From positions 1 through 63,611 of the forward strand of contig SXPB01000020.1 of the NCBI GenBank assembly GCA_005776475.1: 63,611 nt of DNA, in the 5' to 3' direction. Shown piece after piece: positions 687-31,959 of the stretch. The first letter of the stretch is position 1. Each line of letters opens with the position of its first letter. The position numbers and the translations under genes were made by a program. The stretch comes from Planctomycetia bacterium. Its GTDB lineage: Bacteria; Planctomycetota; UBA1135; UBA2386. The notes below the pieces were generated by a model. That model worked only from the letters and a program-made list of their open reading frames with translations, was not told the origin of the DNA and searched no databases.

Positions 687-972
687 GAATATCACGCCAG
701 CCCTCGGACCGCAGCAGCAGACCGGGGTACCGCAGCGCGTTCTTCCGTGGCACGATCGCCGCGATGTGACCGCCCCCTGCGCGGCGTCGGTGATCGCCGC
801 ATCGCTCGCCCTGTCTCGCAGGGAATTGCCGCCCTCAGTTCGGCCGCGACTTCCGGCGCGCCGACGGGCTCGGGGAAGGTGTTCGGCGCGGGGCGGGCCC
901 GAAAGCGCCTTCCCTCAGGTGGGGAGATATCCGGCGGCTGCGTTGCCGACCATACTCCACGCCGGAGCTGCC

Positions 973-3081
973 ATGCCCCACACGCCGACCATGCGAGCAA
1001 TGTTCGCCGCGTTCGCCCTCGTCTGCACCGCATCGGCGCAATGCATCGATCCGCCAATGCCGCCCGGTGGCTTTCCCGTCGTGTCGGCGATCGACCAGCT
1101 GGTGACCTTCACCGACCAGTACCGAACGCGGACCGACGTTCGCTGGCCCGGCGTCGCTCCCGGCACCTGCGGTTGGCCGATGCTGTTGATCGTGCACGGG
1201 TTTCCAGCCTCCAAGAACGGCCCCGTTGCGGCGATGGCTGCCGAGTACGCGGCGCGTGGCTTTCTGGTGGTCTGCTATGACGTGCGCGGGCAGGGTTCGG
1301 CGATTGGCCTGAATCCGGGACGCGGCACCGGACTCATGTCGTTGGCCGAGTGGATCGACATGTTCGAAGTGATGGAGTGGGCCGAAGCGAACTGGCCTGC
1401 GAACGTCGACTTCGCGCGCATCGGCGTCACCGGCATCAGCCAGGGCGGCGCGCACTCGTGGGCGGCAGCAGCCTACTCCGGACGGTTGCCACCGCCGAAC
1501 CCGCGCCGCAGCGCGGCGTTTCCCGTCGTGCGCGCGGTGGCGCCTACCGTGATGGTGCCGAGTCACAGCGATGCGGCGACGTTCGACGGCACGGCATTCG
1601 TGGACAGCTGGGCCCAGCTGTCCTACGCGACGCCCAATCCGACTCTCGCGTTGGATGCCGCGTTCCAGCAGACGATGCGTTCGTTCGTGCTCGCCGACGA
1701 TCCGGTCGGGATGCGGGCGTGGATGCACGCCGATCCGGGGCGCGACTTCCAGGCACTGCTGGCCACGTCGACGACGGCTGTGCTGGCGACGATGGCGTGG
1801 CACGACGATTCGATGGCAGTGAACCCGGTGTTGCGCGCGTTGGCGCAGATGCCGGCGAACACGCCGCGCCGCGCGTTCTTGACCACCGGCCACCACGGCA
1901 CGCCGGGCAACACGTGGGAAACGGCGCGCGTCGATGAAGTGCGGCGGGCGTGGTTCGACCGCTTCCTGCGCAACGGCGTCGAACCGGTGGAATTGGGGCC
2001 GCCGGTGCTGATGTCGTGCATTCCGCCGACCGCCAGCGAATACCTCGCCGCGTCGACGTTGTGGCGACACCGCGCCGAGACCACGTTCCTGCCGCCGCCG
2101 GCCGTTTCGACCACGTACTACCTGCGGCAGGGGGCCGTTCTGTCGACGTCGGCGCCGACGCTCGCCGAACCGCCCGAGTCCGTGCAGCACACGATGCCGC
2201 CGGGCTACGACCTCCTCGCGTGGCGCGCCGATGGTGCGGGCTCGAACCTCACGCTCGCGTTGCAGCGCATGCCGTTGTCGAGCCACTCGTTCACCACGCC
2301 ACCGTTCGCGCAGGACACCGAAGTCGCCGGGATTCCGCTGTTGTCGCTCGAAGTCACGGCGCAACAGGTTCGCTTCCAGTTGTCGGCGCGGCTCGAAGTC
2401 GTGCCGACCAGCGGCACGCCGCAGGTGATCGCCCAAGGTGGGATCGGCGTGCGGCTGCCAGCAGCGCCCGGGCCCGCCACGGTGACGATCGAACTGTCGT
2501 CAACTGCTTGCGTGGTGCCCGCGGGAGCGCGGCTGCGTCTGTCGGTGCGCAACCACTACCTGGTGAAGGCGGCGGCGGTGGATTCGTTCCGCACGTTGCC
2601 TCTGTTCGTGCCGTCCACGGTGCTCGTCGAGCATTCGCCCGGAATGGCGTCGCGGCTGATGCTGCCGCTGCGCGCCGAACCAGGACTCGATGCCGTCACC
2701 TCGACCCGCGACGTGCTGTTGTCGCAGCCAGCCAACGCGACGTTCCAGTTGCGGTCGTCGCCGTTGCGCGCCGGTGCGGCGTACTGGCTGCTCGGTTCCC
2801 TGGGCGGGCAAGGTCCAGCCTCGGTCCTCCCCGGCGGCAGTACCCTGTATCTGCAAGTCGACGCCCTGACGGCCGCGTTGCTGGACCCCAACGGCAATCC
2901 GCTGTTCCCGGGTTTCGTCGGCGTGCTCGATGCCGCCGGTTCGGCGACGGCGACGATGGCGCTGGCACCGGCCGCGCCGCTGCCGGCGGTGCTGGCTGGC
3001 TGGCACGTGCACTTCGCACCGGTGGCGCTGCACAACGGCGCCGCGTTCGCGGGGCCGCCGCTCGAACTGGTGCTCAGGTAG
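973..3081 (+). CDS. Secreted alpha/beta-fold hydrolase (S9/S15 peptidase-like, CocE/NonD-type) ending in a Cys-less copy of the shared C-terminal module
   Basis: Lies inside ORF 517-3081. ATG 973 (alternative 991) precedes the signal peptide MRAMFAAFALVCTASAQC. LLIVHGFPASKNG ... VVCYDVRGQGSA and the nucleophile elbow GVTGISQGGAHSW are present, followed by a long beta-rich C-terminal half. The last ~120 aa (2719-3078) align with the module seen on five other proteins. Confidence 0.6.
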   Translation: MPHTPTMRAMFAAFALVCTASAQCIDPPMPPGGFPVVSAIDQLVTFTDQYRTRTDVRWPGVAPGTCGWPMLLIVHGFPASKNGPVAAMAAEYAARGFLVVCYDVRGQGSAIGLNPGRGTGLMSLAEWIDMFEVMEWAEANWPANVDFARIGVTGISQGGAHSWAAAAYSGRLPPPNPRRSAAFPVVRAVAPTVMVPSHSDAATFDGTAFVDSWAQLSYATPNPTLALDAAFQQTMRSFVLADDPVGMRAWMHADPGRDFQALLATSTTAVLATMAWHDDSMAVNPVLRALAQMPANTPRRAFLTTGHHGTPGNTWETARVDEVRRAWFDRFLRNGVEPVELGPPVLMSCIPPTASEYLAASTLWRHRAETTFLPPPAVSTTYYLRQGAVLSTSAPTLAEPPESVQHTMPPGYDLLAWRADGAGSNLTLALQRMPLSSHSFTTPPFAQDTEVAGIPLLSLEVTAQQVRFQLSARLEVVPTSGTPQVIAQGGIGVRLPAAPGPATVTIELSSTACVVPAGARLRLSVRNHYLVKAAAVDSFRTLPLFVPSTVLVEHSPGMASRLMLPLRAEPGLDAVTSTRDVLLSQPANATFQLRSSPLRAGAAYWLLGSLGGQGPASVLPGGSTLYLQVDALTAALLDPNGNPLFPGFVGVLDAAGSATATMALAPAAPLPAVLAGWHVHFAPVALHNGAAFAGPPLELVLR

Positions 3082-3445
3082 GACGCACGCGTTCGCGCCG
3101 TCGCTGCGTCAGGGCGGCGGCGCATTCGGTGCACGCACGGATCCGTTGGAGCAAGGCTCGCATGGCGACGCATGTTGCTTTGCGAAACGGCCGCCGTGGC
3201 GCGCAATCCGGAGCTTGCGTCGCAATTCGCTCACTGCCGTGCCGTTTGGCTCGCCGCCGCGGTTCGCGCGGTCTTGCTCAACCGGAGGGTCCATCGCCCT
3301 CCGCGCCGGGCGTCGTTTTCGCTGCATCCACGCCGTCCAATGACCTCAGCTCCCGATTTGCGGCCGCATGCCGCGCTCGGAGTTTGCCGTGGTTGCGTTC
3401 GCATCGCACGCCGACGATGACGCCGCGGCGCGGTATTCTCCGGCA

Positions 3446-3826
3446 ATGGTGACGGTGGCGTGTCCGGCGTGTGCGCAGACGATGCAGGCGGAGCGTCACG
3501 ACAACATCGAGATCGACCGCTGTGCCTGCGGCAGCTTGTGGTTCGACGCGGGGGAACTCGCCACCTGGCGAGCCGCACGCCTGGCGCCCTTGCGGGCCGT
3601 CGCAGCGACGCCGGCGCCAGCCATGCGATGCCCCCGTTGCGCGACGCAGACCTTGCGCGAGCACACGGTCGATGGCGTGCCGGTTCGCAACTGCGGCAAT
3701 TGCCGCGGGGTGTTCGTGCCCGGTGCTTCGGTCGCGAAACTGGAACCGCGCTATTCGTCGACCAGTGGTTTTGGCCTCGTCGGCGAGGCGATCCTGCAGA
3801 TCCTGACCTGGCTGCCGTTCGGGTGA
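3446..3826 (+). CDS. Double zinc-ribbon protein (zf-TFIIB-like, PF13453-type) with a C-terminal hydrophobic segment
   Basis: In ORF 3368-3826, with the probable start at ATG 3446 (MVTVACPAC). Two CxxC...CxxC units are present: CPACAQTM..IEIDRCACGSLWFDAGEL and CPRCATQTL..VRNCGNCRGVFVPGASV. The tail GFGLVGEAILQILTWLPFG is hydrophobic. Confidence 0.5.
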   Translation: MVTVACPACAQTMQAERHDNIEIDRCACGSLWFDAGELATWRAARLAPLRAVAATPAPAMRCPRCATQTLREHTVDGVPVRNCGNCRGVFVPGASVAKLEPRYSSTSGFGLVGEAILQILTWLPFG

Positions 3827-3845
3827 CGGACGGACGCCACGCTGC

Positions 3846-4514
3846 TCAAGCCGGCGAGTCCGCACGGCAGAAGTGCAGCCACGACGCGAGCAGCGTCAGC
3901 GTGCCGCCGCCTGCACCGAGCAGCAAGGCCGTTGCTCGCGCGCTGCCGTCGTCGCCGATCGACGCGACGAGGCTCCACGACCACGGCACGTAGAACCAGT
4001 ATTCCTCCGAGTTGGACGCGACGCCGCCGAGGACGAGTCCGGCGACGCCGAGGATCAGCGGCAACGCGAACGACGACATGCGCTGCGCGAGCCATGAAAT
4101 CAGCGCCATCGTCGGCAGCGACGCGAGATAGGCGCGAAACGGCGTTTCGAAGGCGACCGACCAGTGCACCGGGCCAATGCCGGTGATCGTGACCAGCAGC
4201 ATGCAGAGCACGCCGAGGAACGCGGTGCCGAGCGCGATCAGCGCAAGCAGCCACATGCCGTCGGCAGTGCTCTCGAGCTTCACGCACATCGACGCCAGCA
4301 GCGCTGCCACGCGGACGTCGGCGGTGGTGCGCAGCTGCAGCGCGGGTTTGGCAGCGGCCCGCAGTTCTTGCAGTGGTCCTTCGAAGCGGTTGATCCCGTC
4401 GTGCAGGATGCCGACGTGCGTGGCGACCTGTTCGACTTCGCCGAGTTGGTGGCTCGACAGCAGCACCGTGAACGAACCAGCCGGCGCCGATTGCGCGGGG
4501 CCGACACTGCCCAA
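3846..4514 (-). pseudogene. Relic fusing the C-terminal end of an ABC-transporter ATPase to the C-terminal half of an ABC-2/MutE-EpiE-like permease
   Basis: The translation carries GSFTVLLSSHQLGEVEQVATHVGILHDGINRFEGPLQEL, which is the H-loop and C-terminal region of an ABC ATPase. No Walker A, signature or Walker B motif is present. An in-frame stop lies at 4596-4598 and the Kelch gene starts at 4622. The downstream ~140 aa are 3-4 TM helices (LLALIALGTAFLGVLCMLLVTI, ALPLILGVAGLVLGGVA, ...). The track start is a TTG. Confidence 0.5.
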
Positions 4515-4621
4515 TCCGAAAGGGGGACGACGGCCCGCGCCGAGCTGGACGATCTCGCATCCATCCGGTGTCGGCGTGCAAGTAGTGGAGCCCCCTCAGC
4601 GGTTCCAACTCCTCAGCTCCG

Positions 4622-6082
4622 ATGCTCCACGCAATCCACTTGCGGTATCTCCCGTTGCTCTCCGCGTTGCCGTACGCCGTCAGCCTGTTTGCCGACGCGG
4701 CGTCCGCCCAGTCCCTGGTGCGCTCCGTGCCCGCCTTCTCGCCGCCGGCGCTCGATGGTGCGCAGATGGCGTACGACCTGGGGCGTCTGCGTGGCGTCCT
4801 GTTCGGTGGGCTCGCGCTTGACCCCGTCCTGGGCTTCAACTCATCCGACGCCACCTTCGAGTGGGACGGCCAGGCGTGGAGCCTGGTGCAGGCGACGGTG
4901 CGCCCGCCGGGTCGCACGTACCACACATTGGGTTACGACGGCACGCGCACGATCCTGTACGGCGGGGTCCAAATCACCGGGCTCACGTTCCAGGAACTCG
5001 GCGACACGTGGGCCTTCGACGGTGTCGCCTGGACCCAGCTCGCACCGGCCTTGTCGCCGCCAGCGCGCGGCGGTGCGTCGATGGTGTACGACGTGGCGCG
5101 CGGCCGCCTCGTGCTGTTTGGCGGTGCGGACACGAACCAGTACTTCAATGACACCTGGGAGTGGGATGGCGTCACGTGGACCTTGCGTTCGCCGGCCGTG
5201 AGCCCGCCAGTGCGGGCGAACGCACATCTCGTCTATGACCCCCTGCGCAGCCGTATCGTGCTGTTCGGCGGCAGTGACTTTTCCTCCACCGCAGGCCCCC
5301 AGTTGCTGCAAGACACGTGGGAGTACGATGGCGTCACGTGGGCGCAGGTTTCGACGGCGACGTCGCCGCCGACCCGCATCAGCGGCAACCTCGACTTCGA
5401 TCTGCTCAGCAGCCGCGCTGTCCTGGTGGGCGGTTCCGACTTGAACGGGACCCTGGCGGACGCGTGGGCCTACGACGGCACGAATTGGAGCGCACTGACG
5501 CTCGCGAACGCGATCTCGATCGCCGGCAGCGCGCACACCTTCGATCCCTTGCAGCAGCGCGTTGTCTACTTCGGCGGGGTCTCGTTCGATCCGTCCTCGC
5601 CAAGCCCGACCTCGGGCCCGATCGACTTCACGCTGTTGTTGGTGCCCGGCCCCGCAAGTGCGGCGTACGCGTCGTTCGGTGCGGGATGTGACGGCACCGC
5701 GGGCAACGTGCCGGTGCTGGCCGCGGCGCCTTACTCGCTGCCGGTCATCGGAACGACGTTCGCCGCGACGATCGACTACGCGCCCATCGCGGCGCCGGTG
5801 GCCGTCATCCTGATGGGCTTCAGCAACACCACGTGGGCCGGCGGCGCCTTGCCGTTCAACCTGTCGGTGTTCGGCATCGGCGGTGGTTGCAACCTCCTCG
5901 TGGACCCTGCAGCCGCCGCGGTGGTCGGCAATGGCACCGATCCGGCGGTGTTCCGCTTCTCGATTCCGCTGGACCCGCAGCTGACGGGGATCGTGTTCCA
6001 CAACCAGGCGTTGGTGCTCGACACGTTGGCGACCAACGGCCTTGGCGGCCTGACGAACGGGTGCACCGCAACAGTGCAGTGA
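4622..6082 (+). CDS. Secreted Kelch-repeat beta-propeller protein with the shared C-terminal module
   Basis: The signal peptide ends ADAASAQ. Five to six Kelch units are visible: LFGG...ATFEWDGQAW, LYGG...GDTWAFDGVAW, LFGG...NDTWEWDGVTW, LFGG...QDTWEYDGVTW, LVGG...ADAWAYDGTNW. The C-terminal module is at 5663-6079. Confidence 0.75.
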   Translation: MLHAIHLRYLPLLSALPYAVSLFADAASAQSLVRSVPAFSPPALDGAQMAYDLGRLRGVLFGGLALDPVLGFNSSDATFEWDGQAWSLVQATVRPPGRTYHTLGYDGTRTILYGGVQITGLTFQELGDTWAFDGVAWTQLAPALSPPARGGASMVYDVARGRLVLFGGADTNQYFNDTWEWDGVTWTLRSPAVSPPVRANAHLVYDPLRSRIVLFGGSDFSSTAGPQLLQDTWEYDGVTWAQVSTATSPPTRISGNLDFDLLSSRAVLVGGSDLNGTLADAWAYDGTNWSALTLANAISIAGSAHTFDPLQQRVVYFGGVSFDPSSPSPTSGPIDFTLLLVPGPASAAYASFGAGCDGTAGNVPVLAAAPYSLPVIGTTFAATIDYAPIAAPVAVILMGFSNTTWAGGALPFNLSVFGIGGGCNLLVDPAAAAVVGNGTDPAVFRFSIPLDPQLTGIVFHNQALVLDTLATNGLGGLTNGCTATVQ

Positions 6083-6284
6083 ACCGCGGGCACGGCGTTG
6101 CGCGGCGAGCGGACGCTCCCGCGCCAAGGCCGCGAACAAGCTGCGCACGCGCGGCTGGGTTTCTTGCATCCACTTGGGTCACGGGCGTCAAGCAGACTCC
6201 GCAGTCGCCGCCCTTGCGAGTGGTCCCCCGATCGTGGGCAGCGCGCGAAACCCTGGTCCCGACAGGGACTAGCCAACTCGTCGC

Positions 6285-9200
6285 ATGAACCCGCTCGCCA
6301 TCAGCCAGCCTTTGGAGGTCGTGTTCCAGCGGTATGCCGCCACGGCCGATCCCGCCGCTTTGGCCGAGGTCTACGAGCGACAGGCGCCACGATTGACGGT
6401 GTTGGCGGCGCGGTTGGTGAGCAACCGCAGCGACATCGAAGACCTCGTACACGAGACCTTCTTGCGCGCGATGCGGGCGGCGGCGAGCTGCGATCCGACG
6501 CAACCACTGAGCGGATGGCTGTACGGCATCCTGCGCCGCGTGGCATGGGAACGTTCGCGCCGAGCCCGCGAAGCACAACTTGCCTGCGACCCGCCAGACT
6601 GCGTGGGTGGTACGGAACCCATGTTCGCGGCCGAGGTCAGTGCCGCCATCGACCGGGCCCTGTTGCGGGTTCCAGGTCACTACCGCGAACTGCTACGGCG
6701 CCGGCTCATCGCGGGGCAGCGGGCCGTCGACATCGCCAACGAAATGCGCCTGCCGATCGCGACGGTGCGCTCCAAGCTGCAGCGTGGCTTGCGCATGCTG
6801 CGCGCGGCGTTGCCGTTCGGGCTCGCGAGCATGTTGTGCCTCGCGTTCGCGCCGCGGGCACTGGCGCAGGGCCAACGACGATTGGACCGCGCCTTGGCAG
6901 CGAAGCCGGCCCTGTCGATGACAGCGTTGCTGTTGCTCGCCGCCGCGCTGCTCGTACTCGCCGGCGGCTCCGTGTGGTTGCAGCATGCTGGGCTGGCGTC
7001 GTCGCCAGGTGCCTCGGTGCTGCCCCTGGTGGCAGCGACCGAAGACGTTGCGCCGAGCAAGGAGCCGCTGCTGTCGCGCGACGCCGCCGATTCGCAGGTC
7101 ATCCTGCGCGGGTTCATCGATGTCGGGACGGCGTACTCGTTCACGAATGCAGTACTCGTCGCCTTCGCGGCGCCCGTGGATCTCCTGATGGCGCGCCCAC
7201 CGATGATGGTCCTGGATCCGAACGAGCAGGAACTGGCCTGCATCGCCAGGCAATGCCTGCAGGGGCCGGAGTGCGGGCGGGCCCAGGTGGCCGCCGACGG
7301 CTCCTTCGAACTGGTGACGTCGCTGCGCGATGTCGTCCTGGATCTGCGTGACGACGTCAGTGGGCTGCTGTTGCCGATGGTTGCCCATGTTCCCGCGGGA
7401 CAACGCGAACTGCAGTTGCCGGTGCTGTTCGGCTACGTCGGCTGCCGTCTGCAGGGATTCCTGCCGGCGGGAGTGTCGCCAACGGAGGTCACGCTGCACT
7501 GCATGCCGGAGATGCACGATCCGTTCGCCGACGCCACGATCGTGCAGTTGGCGAGGGATCAGCCCTTGCGAGCCGACGTGGAAGGTCGGAGCTTCGTGTT
7601 CTCGGCAGTGTTGTTCTCGGGGGTGGCGACGGTCGTCGCGACGGACGTGCACGGCAACCGGTGGTACCAGTTCATCGACGGCGACGCTCCGGTGCGGCAG
7701 GTCGCGCCGCTGCAACAGGCGCGAGAGCGGCTCGAAGTGTGTGCGGCCGACCCGGAACTGGCCGGAACCATGGACTTGATCCACGAGCACGGGCTGCAGG
7801 TCGGCGCCGTCATGGTGGACGGTCGCGCCGTCGTCACCGACCTGCTGCCTGGCAAGTACCAGGGTGCACTGTGCACGCACGACGGCAGGACGATCACGTT
7901 CGAGGCCGATCTCGAGCGCTGTTCGCACGTGTCGTTGCCAGCAACCCAGGAACGCCAGTGCATCGGGATCGTACGGACCACCCGCAACCTGCCGGTGGCT
8001 GGGGCGCAGATCGTCACCCTCGATCCAAGAGCAAGGGGGGCGGTGGCGATTGCGACGACGGACGACGAAGGCGCGTTCTCGGTCACGGTGGGCGGTGCGA
8101 CGCAGTTGCTGATCGATGCCGGACACGGTCGGAAACAACTGGTCAGGCCCCGCGGTGACCGGCCCTTGCGCATCGAAGTTCCGGACCTGATCGCTGTGCG
8201 CGGGCGACTCCTGCTGCCGCCGGAAGAACGGGGCGCATGTTTCGGCTACGCGCTGATCCACGGCAGTGATGGTGAGGACATCGGTTGCGATCGGCGACCG
8301 GTGCGGATTGCCGCTGATGGCGGGTTCTGCATCGCCAACGTCGCGGCCACCGCGTTGCGGCTCGACCTGACCATTGCCGGCGTGGCCTCTGCCGGCGCCG
8401 AACTTCCGCGGCGTGCGGTCGACAACGACGAATGCGACCTCGGCGACCTGCAGGTGCAGAGATGGGTGGCTGTGCGTGGGCAAGTGTTCGATCCGGAACA
8501 GCGACCCGTCGCCGGCGCCTTCGTTGCCGTGTTGCCGCCTGGCATACCGGAACAGCGCAGCACGCGAGCGCGGCTCGGCCGAACTGCAGCCGATGGCACG
8601 TTCACCCTGATGGTGCCGCCCGACAACTCCGTCGATGTGATTGCCCACGATCGCGGGCACGCCATGCGATGGCGCGGGTCGATGGAGGCGAGCGAGCGCA
8701 TCGTGCTGCAACCGCTCGGAGCAGTCACCGGCCGTGTCGACGGGAGCCTGCCGGGTGGTACCGGCGTGCTGCTGCTCAGCCCTGAGGGCATCGTTCGCCT
8801 CGCGCCGATCGCGCGCGACGGGTCCTTTCGTTGCGTTGGCCTGCCGGCGGGCGACTACCGCCTTTCGCTCGTCAAGGCCGACCAACCGTGCATCGGTACT
8901 GCTGCACGCCAGGTGCGGGTTGCCAGTGGCGAGACGGTTTGGGTCGAGTTCGCCGGCAGCGTACCGGTGGCGCGCCTGACGCTGGAGCTGACGTCACCGA
9001 TCGTGCCGATGGCGGACCTCATGGTCGTGCTTCAGTCGAGTGATGCGAGCGAGCCGCCGGTGCTGCATCCCGCGTGCGAATCGTCGGAGTTCGAACTGTC
9101 ACCCGGTGAGTGGACGGTGCAACTGGTGCGGTGCGACGGACTGCCGCATGGTCTGGGTCGTCGGCTGCGCCTTGCCGCTACCGCAGCGAAGCTGGCCATC

Positions 9201-9671
9201 ACGCTGCCGACGACCGCGGTGCGCGGACGGTTGCTCGGTCCTCGAGGCGATGCGGCCACGGTGTTGGTCGTGCCCAAGCACGCCGATTGGGTGCCGGTGC
9301 CTGCGACCATCGCCAACGACGGCACCTTCGAACTCGGAGGCGTCGACCCCGAGCAGGTCTCGCTGTTCGCCGTCGACCCGAGCCGCGAACCCGCGCTCAG
9401 CGGTGTTGCGGCTGGCACGAGCAGCCAGCTGTTCCTGCAGCCGGCGGGTTGGCTGGAACGGTCGCCGTCTTGCGATCCATCGCATCCGGTTCTGTTGAAA
9501 GCATGCGATGGCCTTTGCTTCGACGTCGAGTTGCCGCGCGACGAGCGCACCGGTCGTGTCCTGCTGCCAGCGGGCGTGCTCGACCTCGTCGTCGGCACGA
9601 CCTTGCGCCAACACGTCGTGGTCGGCGCCGGTCAAAGCGTGGCGATTGCCGCGGGCCCGGTGGGGCGCTGA
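6285..9671 (+). CDS. ECF sigma factor fused to transmembrane segment(s) and a ~900-aa domain of carboxypeptidase-regulatory-like beta-sandwich repeats
   Basis: Sigma region 2 is DIEDLVHETFLRAMRAA and GWLYGILRRVAWERSR. The region 4 HTH is YRELLRRRLIAGQRAVDIANEMRLPIATVRSKLQRGLRML. Hydrophobic FGLASMLCLAFAPRALA and ALSMTALLLLAAALLVLAGGSVWL follow. Repeats then appear, such as VRGQVFDPEQRPVAGAFVAVLP...DGTFTLMVP and VTGRVDGSLPGG...DGSFRCVGLPAGDYRLSL. Confidence 0.7.
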   Translation: MNPLAISQPLEVVFQRYAATADPAALAEVYERQAPRLTVLAARLVSNRSDIEDLVHETFLRAMRAAASCDPTQPLSGWLYGILRRVAWERSRRAREAQLACDPPDCVGGTEPMFAAEVSAAIDRALLRVPGHYRELLRRRLIAGQRAVDIANEMRLPIATVRSKLQRGLRMLRAALPFGLASMLCLAFAPRALAQGQRRLDRALAAKPALSMTALLLLAAALLVLAGGSVWLQHAGLASSPGASVLPLVAATEDVAPSKEPLLSRDAADSQVILRGFIDVGTAYSFTNAVLVAFAAPVDLLMARPPMMVLDPNEQELACIARQCLQGPECGRAQVAADGSFELVTSLRDVVLDLRDDVSGLLLPMVAHVPAGQRELQLPVLFGYVGCRLQGFLPAGVSPTEVTLHCMPEMHDPFADATIVQLARDQPLRADVEGRSFVFSAVLFSGVATVVATDVHGNRWYQFIDGDAPVRQVAPLQQARERLEVCAADPELAGTMDLIHEHGLQVGAVMVDGRAVVTDLLPGKYQGALCTHDGRTITFEADLERCSHVSLPATQERQCIGIVRTTRNLPVAGAQIVTLDPRARGAVAIATTDDEGAFSVTVGGATQLLIDAGHGRKQLVRPRGDRPLRIEVPDLIAVRGRLLLPPEERGACFGYALIHGSDGEDIGCDRRPVRIAADGGFCIANVAATALRLDLTIAGVASAGAELPRRAVDNDECDLGDLQVQRWVAVRGQVFDPEQRPVAGAFVAVLPPGIPEQRSTRARLGRTAADGTFTLMVPPDNSVDVIAHDRGHAMRWRGSMEASERIVLQPLGAVTGRVDGSLPGGTGVLLLSPEGIVRLAPIARDGSFRCVGLPAGDYRLSLVKADQPCIGTAARQVRVASGETVWVEFAGSVPVARLTLELTSPIVPMADLMVVLQSSDASEPPVLHPACESSEFELSPGEWTVQLVRCDGLPHGLGRRLRLAATAAKLAITLPTTAVRGRLLGPRGDAATVLVVPKHADWVPVPATIANDGTFELGGVDPEQVSLFAVDPSREPALSGVAAGTSSQLFLQPAGWLERSPSCDPSHPVLLKACDGLCFDVELPRDERTGRVLLPAGVLDLVVGTTLRQHVVVGAGQSVAIAAGPVGR

Positions 9672-9731
9672 AGCAACCCGGATCCGACACCTGGTGGGGC
9701 CGAGGGCGTGACTCGTGATGGGGGCCGTGGC

Positions 9732-10190
9732 CTATTTGGCTTCGTAGTTCCTGCCGGCGGCGAACTCGATCCGGTGGATTCCCTCCTTCTTCGCCAGGTT
9801 GATGACGTTCACGATCTCGTGCCACGGTACCAACTCGGCGCCATCGACGATGCACGGTTCATCGGCCATGCCGACACGCTCGTGTTCGGCATGGGCAGCA
9901 CGCAGGATGCTGCGCAGGTGGCCATCGTCACGGATGTGCACATAGCCGAACCGCCGCACCGTCTTCTGCGCGTCCGCGTCCCAGTGCAGGGCGACCCGGA
10001 CTTCTTCGAGCGGTGTCGCCTCCGGCCCGTTCCCTCCCCTGTGCTTCGGCAACCACGCGCAGAACTTGCCCTCCATGTCGTTCCACTTCATCGAGCACAT
10101 GAAGAACACGCAGAGGCAGAAGATGACGTCGACCATCGGCACGACGTTGATCGCCACCGGGTTCCCATTGGGGTCTTGGCTGCTGGCCAT
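9732..10190 (-). CDS. exbD: ExbD/TolR-family biopolymer transport protein (orphan)
   Basis: 152 aa. INVVPMVDVIFCLCVFFM is the single N-terminal TM typical of ExbD, followed by a periplasmic domain with ...VNVINLAKKEGIHRIEF. The start codon cat at 10188-10190 was verified. Confidence 0.65.
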   Translation of the reverse strand: MASSQDPNGNPVAINVVPMVDVIFCLCVFFMCSMKWNDMEGKFCAWLPKHRGGNGPEATPLEEVRVALHWDADAQKTVRRFGYVHIRDDGHLRSILRAAHAEHERVGMADEPCIVDGAELVPWHEIVNVINLAKKEGIHRIEFAAGRNYEAK

Positions 10191-10350
10191 GGTGGGGCCA
10201 ACGGTGTGGCTGCGGCGCCGGTTCAGTCGAGGCCGTGGGGCCGCGTTTGCGCTGCCGTGACCTTGCCGTAGCGGGCTGCTAGTACGGGCGGGGGACCGGA
10301 AAGACCTGGCCCCTGGACAACCCCGACGGACCAGCGACGATCCTCACCCC

Positions 10351-11979
10351 ATGCGAAGAACCCCTTGGATTCTGCTCTTGGCTTTGGCGTCGGCTGGCAA
10401 CGCGCAAATCCTGCCGCACGGCTTCGTGGTCGAGACGTTGGCGCCGAACCAGGTCGGGCCGACGAGCCTGGACTTCCTGCCCGACGGGCGCGTGATCTTC
10501 GTCGAGCAGAACACGGGCGCCGTGAAGGTGCTCTGTCCTACGGGTGGCAATGCGGTGGGCACGCTCGGCCAGGTGCCTGGGCTCGTCGTGTCGTACAGCC
10601 GGGGGTTGCTCGGTGTCGCGGTCGACCCGCAGTGGCCGTCCCGCCCGTTCCTCTATTGCTACCACACGAATGCCGCGGCGGCGGACCTACGCATCAGCCG
10701 GTTCACGGTCACCGGGGACCTCGGGACTCCCACCAGCACGAACCTGCAGCTCGGTCCGGCCTACACCGTGTTGGCTGGCTTGCCCGACGTGACGCCGTTG
10801 CACGAGTCCGGCTGCCTCCGGTTCTCGCCCGATGGCACGCTGCTGTGCAGCGTCGGCGATGACACCAACGCATGTGCCGCGCAGAACGTGACCGTGGGGA
10901 ACGGCAAGCTGCTGCGCCTCAAGGTCGACCTGCTGCCGTTCAACGGCAGTGGTCCGCCCACGCTCGCGCTGATCACGCCGCCTGGCAACCCGTTTCCCGG
11001 ATCCGCCGGCCTGGCGCCCCTGGTCTACGCGACCGGCATGCGCAATCCGTTCCGCTTCCACGTCGACTCTGCGAACGGCGCCATCTTCGTCAGCGACGTC
11101 GGCGAGCTGCAGAAGGACGAGATCAACCGCATCGACGCGCCGGGCTACAACCTCGGCTGGCCGTGGCTCGAGGGCGACGTTCCGTACACCACGTGCAGCG
11201 GTTCCGCGCCGAGCAACACGCTCGTGCCGATTGCGATGCAACCCGTCGGTCCGCAGTTCACGGCGCTGATTTCGCTCGGTGTCTATCGCACGCCGAACAA
11301 CCCGACGTGGCCGTTCGGCGCCAGCTACGAAGGCGACTACTTCTACACCGAGCACTTCTCCGGGCGCATCTGGCGCCTGCGTGACCAGGGCGGGTGGTGG
11401 GACATCGCACCGCCGGTGCCGGGCCAATTCTCGAGCACGCTCTGGGGCTCGGGCGTGTTCTGGATCGTCGATGCGAAGTTCGGGCGCGACGGCGCCCTCT
11501 ACTTGTGCGAACGGGTCTCCAGCACCAGCGGCAGCGTGCGCCGCATCCGCCCGACGGGCGCGACCGCGGTTGCCTTCGGTCAGGGCTGCGGCGGCAGCTT
11601 CGGCACTGCGACGATGGCTCCTGCTGCCGGCTCCCTGCCAACGCTCGGGAGCACGTTCCAGACGGTGGTGTCCAACCTGCCGTTGCCGCCCGCCGGACTG
11701 AGCGTGGGCGTGATGGGATTCTCGAAGACCACCTGGGGCGGAATCCCGCTGCCGCTCGACCTGGGCGTGCTCGGCATGCCGGGCTGCACGGCCTGGGCCG
11801 CGCCCGAAGGCCTGGCCGTCCTGCCGCGCGTCGGCACGACCGCGACGTTCACGTTGCCGCTGCCGAATGGAACCGGCCTCATCGGCCAGGACTTCTACCT
11901 GCAGACCCTCGTGCTCGACATCGGTTGGAACCCGTTCGGCGGCGTCGTCACCAACGCCGTCGAGTGCGTGATCCGGTAG
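10351..11979 (+). CDS. Secreted glucose/sorbosone dehydrogenase-like (PQQ-type GSDH) beta-propeller protein with the shared C-terminal module
   Basis: The signal peptide is MRRTPWILLLALASAGNAQ. Family motifs are FLPDGRVIFVEQNTGAVKVL, GLLGVAVDPQW, HESGCLRFSPDGTLL, GKLLRL, YATGMRNPFRFHVD and GYNLGWPWLEG. The module is at 11566-11976. Confidence 0.7.
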   Translation: MRRTPWILLLALASAGNAQILPHGFVVETLAPNQVGPTSLDFLPDGRVIFVEQNTGAVKVLCPTGGNAVGTLGQVPGLVVSYSRGLLGVAVDPQWPSRPFLYCYHTNAAAADLRISRFTVTGDLGTPTSTNLQLGPAYTVLAGLPDVTPLHESGCLRFSPDGTLLCSVGDDTNACAAQNVTVGNGKLLRLKVDLLPFNGSGPPTLALITPPGNPFPGSAGLAPLVYATGMRNPFRFHVDSANGAIFVSDVGELQKDEINRIDAPGYNLGWPWLEGDVPYTTCSGSAPSNTLVPIAMQPVGPQFTALISLGVYRTPNNPTWPFGASYEGDYFYTEHFSGRIWRLRDQGGWWDIAPPVPGQFSSTLWGSGVFWIVDAKFGRDGALYLCERVSSTSGSVRRIRPTGATAVAFGQGCGGSFGTATMAPAAGSLPTLGSTFQTVVSNLPLPPAGLSVGVMGFSKTTWGGIPLPLDLGVLGMPGCTAWAAPEGLAVLPRVGTTATFTLPLPNGTGLIGQDFYLQTLVLDIGWNPFGGVVTNAVECVIR

Positions 11980-11987
11980 CGGGATCG

Positions 11988-12125
11988 TCACTCGGCGAGC
12001 AGGTAGCCCTTGCCGTGCACGGTGCGCAGCCAGCGCGGCGCACTCGGATCGGCTTCGATCGTCTGCCGCAGCGGATGCTGCGAGATGACGACGAGAGTAC
12101 GCGCCGACTGGCGCCGGACGGACTC
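11988..12125 (-). pseudogene. Relic of the C-terminal winged-helix end of an OmpR/KdpE-type response regulator
   Basis: I translated the minus strand by hand. It reads ...ESVRRQSARTLVVISQHPLRQTIEADPSAPRWLRTVHGKGYLLAE, with the stop at 11988-11990. This matches the recognition-helix/wing end of OmpR-family regulators (compare ...HLRQKLEQDPARPR...T..G.GYRF). No start codon occurs in the 76 open codons. No receiver domain is present. The frame is closed upstream by the methyltransferase stop at 12219-12221. Confidence 0.5.
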
Positions 12126-12218
12126 GACCAGATCGCCAACTACCTCGACGCACGCAGCAAGTCGAAGAGCGGCTGCAGTGATCCTGCCGCGCAGCTGCGA
12201 TTGTTCAGGCGAACTGGG

Positions 12219-13094
12219 TCAGACGGCGGCCGGGACCGCCGCCAGTTCGTAGACGCGCAGGAAGTTCGAGGGGTCGCCGCGGAAGCCGGCGACCGCATCG
12301 GCCCAGCCGGACACTGCGGTGCGCTGGAACCACGGCGCCAACTGGCGATCCCACCACGACAATGGCCGCAACGTGATGTGGCCGACGTAGTGGAACTCGA
12401 CCAGTGCGATGTGCGCGACGATCCGGCGCACACCCAGGCGCAGGAACTCCTCGACCATCGGCCGGATCGAGCGTTCCGGAATGTGCTCGAACACGTCGAG
12501 CGCGAGCAGCGTCGAGAAGCCGTCGGCGGGACCGAACGGAATCTGGTCGACGCTGCCACGGCGCAGGAACGGCCGCGTCTCCGGGTAGGCGATGCGATCG
12601 AGGTCCGCGCACAGGTCGAAGCCCCAGGAGTCGATGCCGCGCTCGCGCAGCTGCCGCACGACCTCGCCGGCCGAACAACCGGCGTCGAGCACTTTGCCCG
12701 GGTTGCCGTACTTCACCAGCTGGTCGATCACGTGGCGCTTGAATGCCGTCTCGGTCGGCGAGCCGACCGCGTAGTTCTGCGAGTTGTGGTAGTCGCCGGA
12801 ATACAACGCAGCGAGTGAGGCGTCGTCGATGTCGGCGAAGCTGCCGCGATGGAACGGCGCCAGCAGTTCGCGCAGCTTGCCGAGGATCGCGGTGGCCGAA
12901 GGATGCGACGGATCACCTTCCAGCACGTCGATGCGCGGAGTGGCGTCACGCCAATCGCAGTGGACACTTCCGGCCAGACCCGTCGCGCTGTCGGCGAACT
13001 CGAACACGCACGCGTCGCCGCTCCAGATGCCGCCGGCGACCCGCATGATGCCGCTCCGACTGCCAGCCGTCGTCTCGTACGCAACCTGGAACAT
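12219..13094 (-). CDS. Class I SAM-dependent methyltransferase with a ~90-aa N-terminal extension
   Basis: This is the C-terminal part of ORF 12219-13739. The first ATG downstream of the upstream gene stop is at 13094 (MFQVAYETTAG). Motif I is GKVLDAGCSAGEVVRQLRERGIDSWGFD, and LLALDVFEHIPE is the post-II/III region. Motif I begins near aa 135. Confidence 0.65.
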   Translation of the reverse strand: MFQVAYETTAGSRSGIMRVAGGIWSGDACVFEFADSATGLAGSVHCDWRDATPRIDVLEGDPSHPSATAILGKLRELLAPFHRGSFADIDDASLAALYSGDYHNSQNYAVGSPTETAFKRHVIDQLVKYGNPGKVLDAGCSAGEVVRQLRERGIDSWGFDLCADLDRIAYPETRPFLRRGSVDQIPFGPADGFSTLLALDVFEHIPERSIRPMVEEFLRLGVRRIVAHIALVEFHYVGHITLRPLSWWDRQLAPWFQRTAVSGWADAVAGFRGDPSNFLRVYELAAVPAAV

Positions 13095-13174
13095 GCCGAT
13101 GGCATCGACTCCGCAGCGGCTGCGGCTGTAGATCCAAGCCGCCTCGCGGTCGGGATCGGGGGCGTGGTGCCGGT

Positions 13175-13666
13175 CTACTTCGCCTTCGTGGTGCCGCCAG
13201 CCGTTGCCTTGTCCTTGGTGCCCACCGGCCCCGTTCCGGCCACCGGCGTGCTCGCCAGGCGTGCCGCGGTGAGCACCCCGAAGATCAGGAGACCGCCACC
13301 GATCGGCACCAGGACGATCGCAAAGCCTGGATCCGCGCCGAGGATCTGGATGCCGCCGCCGAGAAACCCGAGCGGCATCGCGATCGCCGCCCAACGCAGA
13401 CTCGTCGCGGCCTTGGCAACCGCGCGTTCGTTCTCCGGGCTCCTGGCGATGGTCGCCACCAACGCCAGATTCACCAGGGCCAGCAGGGTGCCGTGCGTGT
13501 GCGCGAGGGTGAACATCAGGCGACGCGTGTCGTTCACGACATCGAGGTACCACCCGACCTTGAAGCCGTGCATGGCCTCGAGCACCATTCCGAGCGAGAG
13601 CCACACGAGGAGCGACCACCAGCCGAAGCTGCGGGCGCGTTGCAATGGGTCCATGGGGGTGTTCAT
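13175..13666 (-). CDS. Four-TM membrane protein with conserved-looking His residues (unknown family)
   Basis: 163 aa. I checked the translation codon by codon. Helices include WWSLLVWLSLGMVL, GTLLALVNLALVATI, WAAIAMPLGFLGGGI and AIVLVPIGGGLLIFGVL. His residues sit in EAMHGF and LAHTHG. Its start overlaps the upstream cytochrome stop by 4 nt. Confidence 0.6.
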   Translation of the reverse strand: MNTPMDPLQRARSFGWWSLLVWLSLGMVLEAMHGFKVGWYLDVVNDTRRLMFTLAHTHGTLLALVNLALVATIARSPENERAVAKAATSLRWAAIAMPLGFLGGGIQILGADPGFAIVLVPIGGGLLIFGVLTAARLASTPVAGTGPVGTKDKATAGGTTKAK

Positions 13667-15585
13667 TCTTCGAGGCGAACCACGCGCAGGTCGCGACGCC
13701 GGAGCAGCCGCGCGAACTCATCGGAATCGAGCGAACCATCGGGGCGCAGCAACACGGCCGGCCGCGCGACGTCGGCGGGCGTGCGCGGCGCTCGTCGCCA
13801 CGCCGCGACCACGGACTCCTTCAGCACCTTGCGCGTCGCGGCATCCATGCCCGGTTCGTAACGCAAGTCGGCGTGTGCCGGCAATGTTCGCAGCGAGCGT
13901 TCGGCGATGATGCGGACGACGCCGTAGGGATCGTCGAGCAACTCCGCCAGCAACGGCACCGACCAGTCGCTTCCCGAGGCCTGGCGCGCCGGCTCCCAGC
14001 CGAGGCTCCACGCCGCCAGTGCTCGTTGCGCGGCATCGCCCTTCAGCGACCAGAGCACGCCGGCGGCGATCGAGGCTTCATCGCCCGTGATCGTGGGCTT
14101 CGGCGTTCCGTACCAGCCGGCGAGGTGGTCCGCCGTCCACGCCAGCGTCTTGTCGAGGTGGCATTGGTTGCAGGCATTGGGCCGGCCGGTGGCCAGCGTC
14201 GACTGCACGCTTGGGCTGGCGATGCGGTGCGTGCGCACGCCCTTCATCAAGCCGTAGGTCGTGTGCGGCATGTGGCAGTTCATGCAGCGACTGCCTTCGG
14301 AGTCGACGGCGTGGTGCGTGTGTGCGGCGATGTCCTTGGCGAAGGTGGGATGGCATTGCAGGCACGAGCGGTCGCCGACGTCCGCGGCCAGCTGATCGTC
14401 GGCCCACGCCGCTCGCGGCCGGCCATCGTGCGGATGCAGCGTGTGGCAGGACAGGCACGTCATGTGCCCCTTCTCGTAGCAGTCCGACCCCGAGACCGCG
14501 TTGAACTCGCGCCCCGCGACGCGAATCAGGCCATCGGACCAGAACTGTCCCTCGCCATCCTTCTTCAGCAAGCGGTCCTTCAGCAGATCGCCGCCAGGTG
14601 CGTAGGGAAACCCGTGCTTGAACCACGACTCGCGGCGCGCCGTCGTCAACTGGTAGTCGAACTGGCCGTGGCACTGCCCGCACACCATCGTCGACCGGTC
14701 GTGCGGCAAGTTTCTAGGATCGACGATCGTCGCATCGCCGTCGCCGTCGAGTCGCTGCGCGTATCGGGTCAACGGATTGCGCTGCAGTTGCACGTGGGCG
14801 GCGCCGGGGCCATGGCACGCTTCGCACGCGATGCCGAAGTCGCCGACCTTGGTGTCGCCGTCGTGCAAGCCCGTGTTGTCCATGTCGAGCCGCGGGCGTG
14901 CATTCGTCGCATGGCACTTGATGCAGATCAGGTTCCAGTTGCCGATGCCATCCTGCGGCGGGTCGGTCTCCGGCTGCACGAACGAATCGTTGCGCGAGAT
15001 CCAACGCCGTTCCGCCACCTGCCATGAGAACGGCAGCATGCCCGTCAACCGCGTCGGCACGTTGCCCGGCAAGCGGACCTCGTACCAATAGACCTGCATG
15101 TGGTGTGAGCCCGTCGACATGACGACGGGGCGCTTCACGCGGCCTGGCGTGTTGCCAGGCATCACGACGGGATCTTCCATCTCGACGAAGAACGTGTCGC
15201 CGTCGCGCGACAGGTTCCACGTCTTGTCGTGCGATCGCAGCGTGACGCCATCCCAATCGGCCAGCACGCTCGCCGGCTCGACCACCTGCGTCATCGTGCG
15301 GTGGTAGGACTGATGCCACGTGTCGTGTTCGTGCAAGTGGCAGGCGCGGCACGCCGAGGAACCGATGTAGCCGCCGTCGGCCGCCAGCTGTGGCCGGTTG
15401 TTCACCTCTGCCTCGCCGGCGCGCGCCGGCCGCATCACCGTGGCGCTTGCCACCAACGCAGCGCCGAGCAACACCGCAATGGCACTGGCACGGTGTTGCC
15501 AATGGCTGCGCCGCGGCCAACGTGCCGCGAACATGGCGACTGCCAGCAGCAGCGCCACCAACGAGACGGAGAGGACGGGGGGCAT
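13663..15585 (-). CDS. Octaheme c-type cytochrome with a C-terminal HEAT-like repeat region
   Basis: The N-terminal anchor or signal is MPPVLSVSLVALLLAVAMFAA. Eight CxxCH motifs are present: CRACH, CIKCH, CEACH, CGQCH, CLSCH, CLQCH, CMNCH and CNQCH. The tail LLAELLDDPYGVVRIIAERSLRTL is HEAT-like. Confidence 0.75.
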   Translation of the reverse strand: MPPVLSVSLVALLLAVAMFAARWPRRSHWQHRASAIAVLLGAALVASATVMRPARAGEAEVNNRPQLAADGGYIGSSACRACHLHEHDTWHQSYHRTMTQVVEPASVLADWDGVTLRSHDKTWNLSRDGDTFFVEMEDPVVMPGNTPGRVKRPVVMSTGSHHMQVYWYEVRLPGNVPTRLTGMLPFSWQVAERRWISRNDSFVQPETDPPQDGIGNWNLICIKCHATNARPRLDMDNTGLHDGDTKVGDFGIACEACHGPGAAHVQLQRNPLTRYAQRLDGDGDATIVDPRNLPHDRSTMVCGQCHGQFDYQLTTARRESWFKHGFPYAPGGDLLKDRLLKKDGEGQFWSDGLIRVAGREFNAVSGSDCYEKGHMTCLSCHTLHPHDGRPRAAWADDQLAADVGDRSCLQCHPTFAKDIAAHTHHAVDSEGSRCMNCHMPHTTYGLMKGVRTHRIASPSVQSTLATGRPNACNQCHLDKTLAWTADHLAGWYGTPKPTITGDEASIAAGVLWSLKGDAAQRALAAWSLGWEPARQASGSDWSVPLLAELLDDPYGVVRIIAERSLRTLPAHADLRYEPGMDAATRKVLKESVVAAWRRAPRTPADVARPAVLLRPDGSLDSDEFARLLRRRDLRVVRLEE

Positions 15586-20453: not shown

Positions 20454-20587
20454 GGGGTTGCCGTCCTAGGGGCTGCGCGTGGCTTTCGAGGTGTCGCAGA
20501 CTACCGCGCCAGCCGTGCGTGGAGTGCTTCCGGTCGGAATCCGATACCACCTACCCGCGCGCGTGGCGCGCTGTCTATGGTGCGCCG

Positions 20588-31001: not shown

Positions 31002-31089
31002 GGCGGCGGCCGATGCTACCTCGGCGCCGCGGCGCGCGGCCCCTCGCTGGGTGGGAATGCGCGTCGCCGGGGCCCGGCGGGACGGGTAA

Positions 31090-31959
31090 TCAGCCGATGA
31101 CAGCGAGGGCAAGCAAGGCGCGCAGCCGCTCGGGAGTGGTAGCCGTCGTCTTGCAGACGAAGCCGCTCTGGTGCGCGAAGTGCACGTCGGCTTGCCGTTC
31201 GAGGCGCGAGAAGTCGAGCCGCGGATCGTCCTCGTAACGCTGCATCCCGTAGCCGGGACCGCGCCGATCGGGGTAGATCATCGCGCCGACGACGCGTTCG
31301 AGCCCTTGCTTGCGGATGAAGTGGGCGACGCCGGCGGACGGCTCGTCGAGCGAAGGCTCGGTGCGCGGCAGGAACACCGTCTCGATCGTCGTGTTCGCGG
31401 CCTGGACCGACCAGCGTTCGCCGTGGCGGGCGACGAACGCGAGCTGGTCGCGCACGGTGCGCAGGTAGTCGAGCAGGTCCTGGCCGACGAGGCGAAGGTA
31501 GTCGTAGACGGTCTCCCCGGGTTGGTGCAGCGAGGCGGCGGCGAACCGCCGCAACAGGGTCGCGTCGATCGGCGAGTTCAGCTGGGCGACGGCGCGGCGC
31601 GGCACGCCGAGCCATTCGGCGGTGCGCTTGGGGCCACGCGAGTCGAACCACTCGGCCGGTTCGAGCCATTCGCAGAACGTGCGGGCATCCTCGTACAGCC
31701 CGATCGCCTGCAGCACGAGGCTCAGCGCGCAGGTTGGCGGATGCTCGCGCGGGAAGTGGTGGTGGTCGAAGTTGTTCCGGGCCGCATCGTGACTGCCGCC
31801 GATGTCGACCGTGGCGACCGCGGGATCGTCGAGTTCCGCGGGCGTGGGTATGCGTCGCTCGATGACGCAGCCGTGCAGCGCCGCGAGCACGCAGCAGGCG
31901 AGCAGGTCGTCGCGATGGGCGCCGCCGGGATGGGTGACGATGCGGCGGAGAGAGGTCAT
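31090..31959 (-). CDS. MYG1/UPF0160-like metal-dependent hydrolase family protein
   Basis: 289 aa. IVTHPGGAHRDDLLACCVLAAL and VDIGGSHDAARNNFDHHH resemble the MYG1 motifs GTH.G.FH.DE..A and VDVGG.YD....YDHHQ. Confidence 0.5.
   Translation of the reverse strand: MTSLRRIVTHPGGAHRDDLLACCVLAALHGCVIERRIPTPAELDDPAVATVDIGGSHDAARNNFDHHHFPREHPPTCALSLVLQAIGLYEDARTFCEWLEPAEWFDSRGPKRTAEWLGVPRRAVAQLNSPIDATLLRRFAAASLHQPGETVYDYLRLVGQDLLDYLRTVRDQLAFVARHGERWSVQAANTTIETVFLPRTEPSLDEPSAGVAHFIRKQGLERVVGAMIYPDRRGPGYGMQRYEDDPRLDFSRLERQADVHFAHQSGFVCKTTATTPERLRALLALAVIG

Follow-up and report, generated by a model that had tools for sequence, protein, structure and literature searches.

An open reading frame (ORF) at 6285-9671 on the forward strand of contig SXPB01000020.1, whose full 63,611 nucleotides (nt) we call the window, encodes an extracytoplasmic function (ECF) sigma factor, a membrane anchor and an extension of ~890 amino acids (aa) of β-sandwich repeats in a single chain. 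This fusion is genuine. The ORF reads from an ATG through 1128 codons to its stop without interruption and contains the two sigma domains, σ2 and σ4, at aa ~10-176, as an initial annotation made from the letters alone had claimed. The protein belongs to a known class, that of membrane-anchored ECFs with a C-terminal extracytoplasmic extension: sigma factor, transmembrane (TM) helix and extracytoplasmic domain lie in one uninterrupted polypeptide, and the neighbouring genes, judged by Pfam, include no cognate anti-sigma gene. We lean, with modest confidence, towards reading it as a one-component ECF sigma factor that is anchored in the membrane, belongs to a large planctomycete family and would be freed by regulated proteolysis to transcribe the genes preceded by a candidate promoter motif, P1. 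Almost all that is known of sigma factors with a membrane anchor and sensor of their own comes from sequence, with IutY alone having been dissected experimentally. This locus offers a tractable example from a very large unstudied planctomycete clade, with a tether, a conserved segment behind σ4, a candidate promoter and a putative target gene. What is new here is the signature of the clade, the conserved linkage to a Kelch gene, and a statistically supported candidate promoter and regulon.

The sole ground for suspecting that a missed frameshift or stop codon has merged a sigma gene with a separate gene for a surface protein is that the sequence is high in GC and rich in repeats; we found nothing else in favour of this idea. 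Three freshwater-metagenome runs (X1, X2 and X3) contain the sequence, and because their independent assemblies show no indel we take the fusion to be real. In one of these runs an independently assembled 11,426-bp contig at ~51x depth spans 6000-9900 with no gap and one substitution, C6705G, and contigs of two further runs cross the junction between σ4 and the TM helix (nt ~6810-6985) without indels. Relative to the window, this population variant, which gives Leu141Val in σ4, is fixed in X1 and X2 contigs. X2 and X3 carry a few more substitutions near 9480-9491, again with no indels. GC content peaks at codon position 3 in 18 of 21 intervals along the ORF, so that the frame-specific signal (GC3) extends throughout. 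Finally, the same uninterrupted arrangement is present in at least six distant full-length orthologues (P0002, P0034, P0035, P0036, P0038 and P0065; 1090-1195 aa), which align over their full length at 26-34% identity. The continuity between sigma factor and extension that the initial annotation had marked for checking is borne out by contigs, reading frame and orthologues alike; a frameshift or assembly artefact is for practical purposes excluded, and we give the two-gene explanation a negligible probability.

The N-terminal part is an ECF (group 4) sigma-70 factor by family models that cover σ2 and σ4 only. Region 2 (aa 30-95; 6372-6569, +) matches Pfam Sigma70_r2 (PF04542) with 48.5 bits against a cutoff of 24. 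Region 4 (aa 120-176; 6642-6812, +) is placed by Sigma70_r4_2 (PF08281), by TIGR02937 and by a profile match to the PDB; the PF08281 match itself, at aa 120-172, scores 23.3 bits, marginally below the cutoff of 25.7. The NCBIfam model TIGR02937 (sigma70-ECF) covers aa 25-176 with 57.1 bits against a cutoff of 42.9, and the failure to match ECF hidden Markov models (HMMs) that would have undone the assignment did not occur. A profile of the clade matches the ECF sigma factors in the PDB with E 6e-28, and the match to solved structures stops at position 175. A Foldseek comparison with the PDB likewise returns ECF sigma factors for this part. AlphaFold2, run on the N-terminal module with a 28-sequence alignment, models σ2 and σ4 with a predicted local distance difference test score (pLDDT) of at least 95 and in a compact arrangement, with a root-mean-square deviation of ~9-13 Å to anti-sigma-bound crystal structures versus ~22 Å to RNA-polymerase-bound ones. 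AlphaFold2 often predicts the compact form of σ2 and σ4, and we give this arrangement little weight. Among orthologues, identity is 38-50% in the sigma part versus 20-32% in the extension; the sigma part looks intact and more strongly constrained than what follows it.

Directly behind σ4 lies a conserved segment (aa 177-208; 6813-6908, +) with a degenerate motif whose clade-wide consensus in alignments is LPxGLAxx…RGLAAVRxxVL. The strict string GLAAVR is present in 64 of 147 clade representatives versus none of nine relatives of the WD40 type. AlphaFold2 places two short helices here, at aa 178-187 and 190-206, with pLDDT 64-75; the second is highly charged. The clade profile search found no counterpart of this segment in the PDB, and the stretches between σ4 and the TM helix of ten members match no Pfam family at E<=10, with no zf-HC2, RskA or FecR among them. 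As far as these models can tell, the segment is neither a TM helix nor a recognisable anti-sigma domain.

A single TM helix follows at aa 209-233 (6909-6983, +), supported by hydropathy, by charge asymmetry and by an AlphaFold2 helix at aa 210-235, or at aa 212-235 in the model of the N-terminal module, and predicted to run N-in/C-out. Its core at aa 209-227 has a Kyte-Doolittle value of 2.39, with charges of +4/-1 in the 14 residues before it and +1/-3 after it; across the family the helix starts at a median of aa 226. Because there is a single TM helix and no N-terminal signal peptide, the sigma factor is expected to be cytoplasmic and the extension periplasmic. The initial annotation had named two hydrophobic stretches and left it to the topology to decide on which side the large domain lies. 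Both stretches exist; only the second is a convincing TM helix. If the first were also inserted, a hairpin would anchor the protein and the β-sandwich domain would be a soluble cytoplasmic regulatory extension in the manner of ECF41/42. This stretch reaches a value of 1.72 here and a third of the members reach 1.6, but it overlaps the last σ4 helix, is broken by Pro190, aligns with the conserved post-σ4 segment described above, is modelled as helices of 10 and 17 residues, and has a hydrophobic segment at 2.0 or above in only 1.6% of 122 family members. Moreover, the β-array most closely resembles extracellular and surface proteins in structure, and CarboxypepD_reg, Big_1 and SdrD_B modules are typically extracytoplasmic. 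We therefore consider a hairpin anchor very improbable.

Beyond the membrane, an Ala/Pro/Ser-rich linker (aa 234-269; 6984-7091, +), judged disordered from its composition and a pLDDT below 50, is predicted to be periplasmic and is a candidate region for a first cleavage. It leads into an all-β array, predicted to be extracytoplasmic (aa 270-1121; 7092-9647, +), in which AlphaFold2, HMMs and Foldseek together delineate about ten β-sandwich modules. The full-length AlphaFold2 model (pLDDT 66.8) is disordered up to about aa 270 and consists of β-strands only, in ~ten modules, over aa 272-1121. The one CarboxypepD_reg domain above the Pfam cutoff spans aa 730-797 with 61.5 bits. Seeding an iterative HMM with this strong repeat yields four significant copies (aa 561-615, 725-812, 814-885 and 977-1055) and, at aa 656-703, a weak CarboxypepD_reg-like one, in keeping with the ‘at least four’ repeats first counted. 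The structural matches of the extension in the PDB are tandem β-sandwich or Ig-like stalks, among them B. anthracis TIE, GhpA, SdrD B-repeats, Gram-positive pilins and the MG arrays of α2-macroglobulin; Foldseek against the PDB found no match to an enzyme or a known ligand-binding fold. No family of carbohydrate-binding modules (CBMs) is matched by Pfam, and the likeness of the modules to CBMs is one of fold only.

To see how far this architecture extends, we searched exhaustively with HMMER among 1.84 billion representatives of clusters at 50% identity. There were 26,512 matches at E<=1e-3, 1,901 at E<=1e-10 (a set that includes ordinary ECFs) and seven at E<=1e-30. The best 148 representatives match the query over aa ~10-260, that is, over the sigma factor, the post-σ4 segment and the TM helix; 125 of them are at least 700 aa long, with a median of 974. 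In a Pfam census on an evenly spaced sample of 55 of these 148, Sigma70_r2 and r4_2 are present in 54 and CarboxypepD_reg in 48, along with CarbopepD_reg_2 (27), Big_1 (26), DUF4198 (20) and SdrD_B (15). A word-indexed search returned ~20 clusters of 835-1220 aa that combine a sigma factor with β-sandwich repeats and ~8 that combine one with WD40; with the profile of the N-terminal module, it gave 13 mostly short ECFs among the matches listed. Judged from these sequences, the order of sigma factor, TM helix and β-sandwich domain is the rule in a large, uncharacterised planctomycete clade and not an oddity. The initial annotation had thought an extension of this size and composition unusual, a view that the lengths and domain counts of the best representatives contradict, as does the documentation of the design elsewhere; its proposal to look for orthologues of the same architecture was rewarded by the full-length relatives described above. 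For named members, the annotation goes no further than ‘sigma-70 family RNA polymerase sigma factor [Planctomycetota bacterium]’. The practical lesson for genome annotation is that a ‘sigma-70 family’ protein of 1000 aa with CarboxypepD_reg repeats is a real and common kind in Planctomycetota, and not a mis-assembly.

The best-studied relative in design is IutY of Pseudomonas putida (ECF243), a sigma/anti-sigma hybrid freed by Prc and RseP proteolysis and the only fused ECF of this kind with a demonstrated mechanism (PMC8999054). Like IutY, the protein described here has an N-terminal ECF sigma factor, one TM helix, a periplasmic C-terminal part by prediction, and no separate anti-sigma gene. 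IutY has in addition a FecR-type anti-sigma domain, a FecR periplasmic domain, a TonB-dependent receptor and siderophore signalling, whereas no anti-sigma domain is detectable here and the periplasmic part would be a β-sandwich array of ~850 aa. Pfam finds no FecR domain in the full protein, just as none was found between σ4 and the TM helix in the ten members, and no TonB-dependent receptor is among the annotated genes of the window. The same layout of ECF sigma factor, membrane anchor, linker and extracytoplasmic β-rich domain recurs in ECF48, ECF52 and ECF53 of Actinobacteria, which combine a zinc finger and TM helices with extensions that reach ~400 aa (PMC8999054, PMC7826278, PMC5826349). 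In the ECF52 protein SCO4117 of Streptomyces coelicolor, a Pro-rich linker joins the membrane to a carbohydrate-binding module, and proteolytic release has been proposed but is unproven (PMC5826349, PMC8999054); our disordered Ala/Pro/Ser-rich linker invites comparison with that one. However, ECF52 is confined to Actinobacteria and has a ZAS (pfam13490) zinc finger between sigma factor and TM helix and one CBM, whereas the present source is planctomycete-like and its protein lacks a zinc finger and has an extension of ~890 aa in ~ten modules. Specifically, aa 177-208 contain no Cys/His motif, and Pfam finds no ZAS domain.

A described group of the Planctomycetes is ECF57 (formerly ECF01-Gob), with long, mostly WD40-like extensions and two conserved cysteines proposed to link σ2 and σ4 (PMC8999054). 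The two share a phylum, a long C-terminal extension and many paralogues per genome, and WD40-type relatives came up in the same searches. The ECF57-type cysteines are present in seven of nine (σ2) and nine of nine (σ4) WD40-type relatives, but in none of 25 members of the query clade at either column; in the sigma part, identity is ~25% to the WD40 type versus ~38% inside the clade, and Pfam finds no WD40 repeat in the 1128-aa protein. A planctomycete origin, which ECF57 would share, is indicated here by hallmark genes in the window and by named relatives from Planctomycetota metagenome-assembled genomes, rather than by phylogeny. Other extended ECFs are ECF263, whose extensions have five or seven TM helices (PMC8999054, PMC7826278, PMC5826349), and ECF41/ECF42, with cytoplasmic extensions of SnoaL or TPR type of about 100-200 aa and no TM helices (PMC7826278). 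The comparison with ECF41/ECF42 drawn at the outset holds at the most general level, in that a covalent C-terminal extension would regulate in place of a separate anti-sigma factor; the extensions differ in size, location and membrane insertion, and the present protein has a TM helix and neither a SnoaL-like nor a TPR domain. For planctomycetes, duplicated ECFs have been described whose large extensions vary in Pfam content (PMC7671368), and in our literature search, which did not extend to the group-defining papers on planctomycetes, no paper linked ECF sigma factors with CarboxypepD_reg extensions. Thus the architecture belongs to an already described class, as the initial annotation had allowed, while the protein itself lies outside every named group whose described hallmarks we compared; the clade may already carry an ECF Hub number. 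At the level of sequence, its signature is the post-σ4 motif LPxGLA…RGLAAVR together with the lack of both an anti-sigma domain and the ECF57 cysteines.

Conservation around the gene points to what the sigma factor may control. Immediately upstream, at 4622-6082 (+), is a gene for a secreted protein with repeats of Pfam Kelch families. The closest full-length orthologue of the sigma factor, P0002 (31% identity, in a 176-kb contig of the Joint Genome Institute, L001), is adjoined by a Kelch protein 64% identical to that of the window, with the gene inverted there. This conserved neighbour may act as a regulon member or as a partner. Upstream, the two sigma genes have two sequence blocks in common, P1 and P2; synteny and motif conservation were compared between these two genomes.

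P1 is a candidate ECF-type promoter. In the window it reads GCATCCA-N16-CAAG at 6166-6192 (+), 92 nt upstream of the sigma ATG and inside the interval 6083-6284 in which the initial annotation had suggested looking for an autoregulated promoter, and GCATCCA-N15-CAAG at 4557-4582 (+), 39 nt upstream of the Kelch ATG. In L001 it stands 96 nt before the sigma gene, 38 nt before the Kelch gene and 36 nt before a gene for an 899-aa protein. A scan of the window with GCATCCA-N13-16-CAAG gave three matches versus 0.11 expected, a number reached in none of 100 shuffles; in L001 there were three versus 0.02 expected, and in the other 165 loci together there were three. Of the six matches in the window and in L001, five are correctly oriented and precede a start codon by 36-96 nt. 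P1 resembles an ECF-type promoter in being bipartite, in its spacing and in how far it stands from start codons. A scan of 4300-10400 found no sigma-70 consensus promoter. ECFs usually regulate themselves and local targets (PMC7826278), and the placement of P1 before the sigma gene and its conserved Kelch neighbour fits this pattern. These positions suggest an autoregulated mini-regulon, with P1 probably recognised by the sigma factor encoded at 6285-9671.

The second block, P2, reads GAAACC-N13-GGACTAG at 6247-6272 (+), 12 nt upstream of the ATG, and recurs at 7951-7976 in L001. In both places the ORF is opened by an in-frame stop, the TAG of P2. A P2-like GTGACGC-N17-CAAG, a pattern generalised post hoc, precedes three paralogues in another locus (L163; at 796, 3967 and 9433) by 5-7 nt. 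P2 could be a second promoter or a translation-start context; as a promoter it would produce a near-leaderless mRNA, given the 5-12 nt that separate it from the ATG. Between the Kelch gene and P1 there is also a terminator-like hairpin (6139-6156, +), recognised by pattern match only.

How might such a protein be switched on? In the resting state, the tether, composed of the ~33-residue segment and the TM helix, would hold the sigma factor away from free RNA polymerase, and the post-σ4 segment may fold back on it, serving as a built-in anti-sigma element of minimal size. The β-sandwich array would then respond to an extracytoplasmic cue, possibly an envelope or polysaccharide ligand or the binding of the co-conserved secreted Kelch protein, and this would lead to site 1 cleavage in the linker or the extension. 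Site 2 cleavage within the membrane by an RseP-type protease and cytoplasmic trimming would follow, as in IutY, and the freed sigma factor would move to GCATCCA-N15-16-CAAG promoters at its own gene, at the Kelch gene and, in the orthologous locus, at the gene of a further secreted protein. Precedent comes from the Prc/RseP release of IutY and from the same model proposed for ECF52 (PMC8999054, PMC5826349); by this analogy, regulated proteolysis would be the most likely release mechanism. The initial annotation had argued that a tethered sigma factor would need proteolytic release or some other conformational control by the extension; we agree that the tether points to control after translation, with release by proteolysis as the most plausible form, and the release itself we infer. 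If the promoter and regulon are as predicted, they would provide a reporter system for how fused sigma factors switch on.

Several observations weigh against this model. The window contains no gene for a site-1 or site-2 protease, a result that we regard as uninformative, and no anti-sigma domain is recognisable, such that simple tethering must account for inhibition. The post-σ4 helices are modelled at intermediate confidence only, and the family-wide positive-inside signal is weak (K+R 1.55 versus 1.18). P1 rests on two genomes and could be the site of another sigma factor or regulator. Its third copy in the window, GCATCCA-N16-CAAG at 13841-13867 (+), is intragenic and antisense in a multihaem cytochrome gene (13663-15585, -); it could be due to chance or be an antisense or internal promoter. 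The presence of P2 close to the start codon also makes it harder to assign the promoter.

The sigma factor might instead be active while tethered, in the manner of ToxR or CadC, recruiting RNA polymerase to membrane-proximal DNA when the TM helix and the post-σ4 segment relay a conformational signal. The lack of an anti-sigma domain would suit such a protein, as would the conservation across the clade of the segment between σ4 and the TM helix; the apparent targets lie directly beside the sigma gene, and co-translational insertion could bring them to the membrane. A tether of only ~33 residues is short, however, for a sigma factor that wraps around RNA polymerase, and we know of no precedent for a membrane-tethered active ECF sigma factor. 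For ECF57, conformational control or protein interaction has been proposed rather than proteolysis, but IutY, the one fused sigma/anti-sigma protein to have been dissected, is released by proteolysis (PMC8999054). On balance, activity in the tethered state seems to us rather unlikely. Less probable again is an evolutionary by-product, in which a duplicated σ2-σ4 unit was inserted in frame into the gene of a surface β-sandwich protein, leaving an extension without a regulatory role or an inert sigma factor. An origin by such insertion has been proposed for many planctomycete C-terminal extensions (PMC7671368), stand-alone CarboxypepD_reg-repeat proteins are encoded near family members (955 aa in L002, 518 aa in L166), and the extensions of paralogues are very divergent. 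However, the order of sigma factor, motif, TM helix and β-sandwich domain is kept in most of ~150 clusters that are at most 50% identical, and the full-length alignment of orthologues, the greater constraint on an apparently intact sigma part and the GC3 signal throughout the ORF all argue against a passive junction. The only apparent stand-alone match to the extension, P0037, is a contig-edge fragment without a start Met, and we rejected it as a free-standing extension.

Release by regulated proteolysis remains the reading that we favour. More tentatively, and with considerable doubt, we propose that these proteins constitute a distinct, undescribed major clade of planctomycete one-component ECFs. 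In its members, the post-σ4 helix pair with LPxGLA…RGLAAVR would replace the anti-sigma domain as a minimal built-in inhibitor or as a signal for a protease or adaptor, a periplasm-spanning β-sandwich rod would be the sensor, and a non-canonical GCATCCA-N15-16-CAAG promoter would serve a mini-regulon of secreted proteins, namely the Kelch protein and proteins with a common C-terminal module.

This module, of ~110-125 aa, is common to the Kelch protein (aa 373-480 of the product of 4622-6082), to a GSDH-type protein of the window (aa 401-535 of the product of 10351-11979) and, in L001, to the products of 6268-7740 and 11458-14157, the latter being the 899-aa protein with the module at its C-terminus. 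The copies are 35-40% identical, and Pfam recognises none of them. A shared sorting or anchoring domain may therefore mark a set of secreted proteins encoded around the sigma gene.

Pfam identifies the neighbours of the sigma gene as Kelch, ExbD, GSDH and S15 peptidase proteins, along with a 222-aa protein without a match. The Kelch gene upstream and the convergent orphan exbD downstream are as initially annotated, and no flanking protein carries an anti-sigma domain, again as had been noted. The ExbD/TolR-like gene (9732-10190, -) is solitary, with no adjacent ExbB/TolQ or TonB, and is followed by the GSDH-type gene (10351-11979, +). Neither ExbD nor GSDH is conserved beside the orthologue in L001. 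Given its absence beside the orthologue, ExbD probably has nothing to do with the sigma factor, and we rejected a functional link between them. A search of genome contigs for related loci with a single protein query gave no further orthologous locus; a search of metagenome and genome contigs with alignments, which settled on generic σ2 motifs, gave only ordinary ECFs matching at residues ~20-176.

Elsewhere in the window, planctomycete hallmarks include PSCyt2/PSD1, sulfatase and cytochrome-c/multihaem proteins (28533-31112, -; 40619-42016, +; 13663-15585, -; 20519-22963, +) at 69% GC, with the PSCyt2/PSD1 (DUF1549/DUF1553) protein encoded at 28533-31112 (-); L001 likewise contains PSCyt2/PSD1/DUF1501. 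Together with the GC content, the hallmark genes of the window point to a freshwater organism of Planctomycetota-like kind. Three ORFs, at 32052-34241 (+), 34301-35923 (-) and 3846-4514 (-), encode 729, 540 and 222 aa, respectively, with a strong coding GC3 signal and no Pfam match.

The window contains only one family member, and clusters of paralogues occur in other loci. L163 has three ECF-TM-β-sandwich genes in 11 kb (831-3935, 4001-7117 and 9467 to the end), with a CBM96 protein in between, and L164 has a divergent pair (1584-3740, -, and 4001-7342, +). Such clusters fit the lineage-specific duplication described for planctomycete ECFs. In L002, family member P0004 is adjoined by a separate ECF gene (Sigma70_ECF; 3829-4407, -) that is divergent from the gene of a 936-aa Ser/Thr kinase (4538-7348, +), which makes the pair a planctomycete ECF-STK arrangement. 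The stand-alone 955-aa repeat protein of this locus is encoded at 12065-14932 (+), directly downstream, and the 518-aa one of L166 stands next to its family member.

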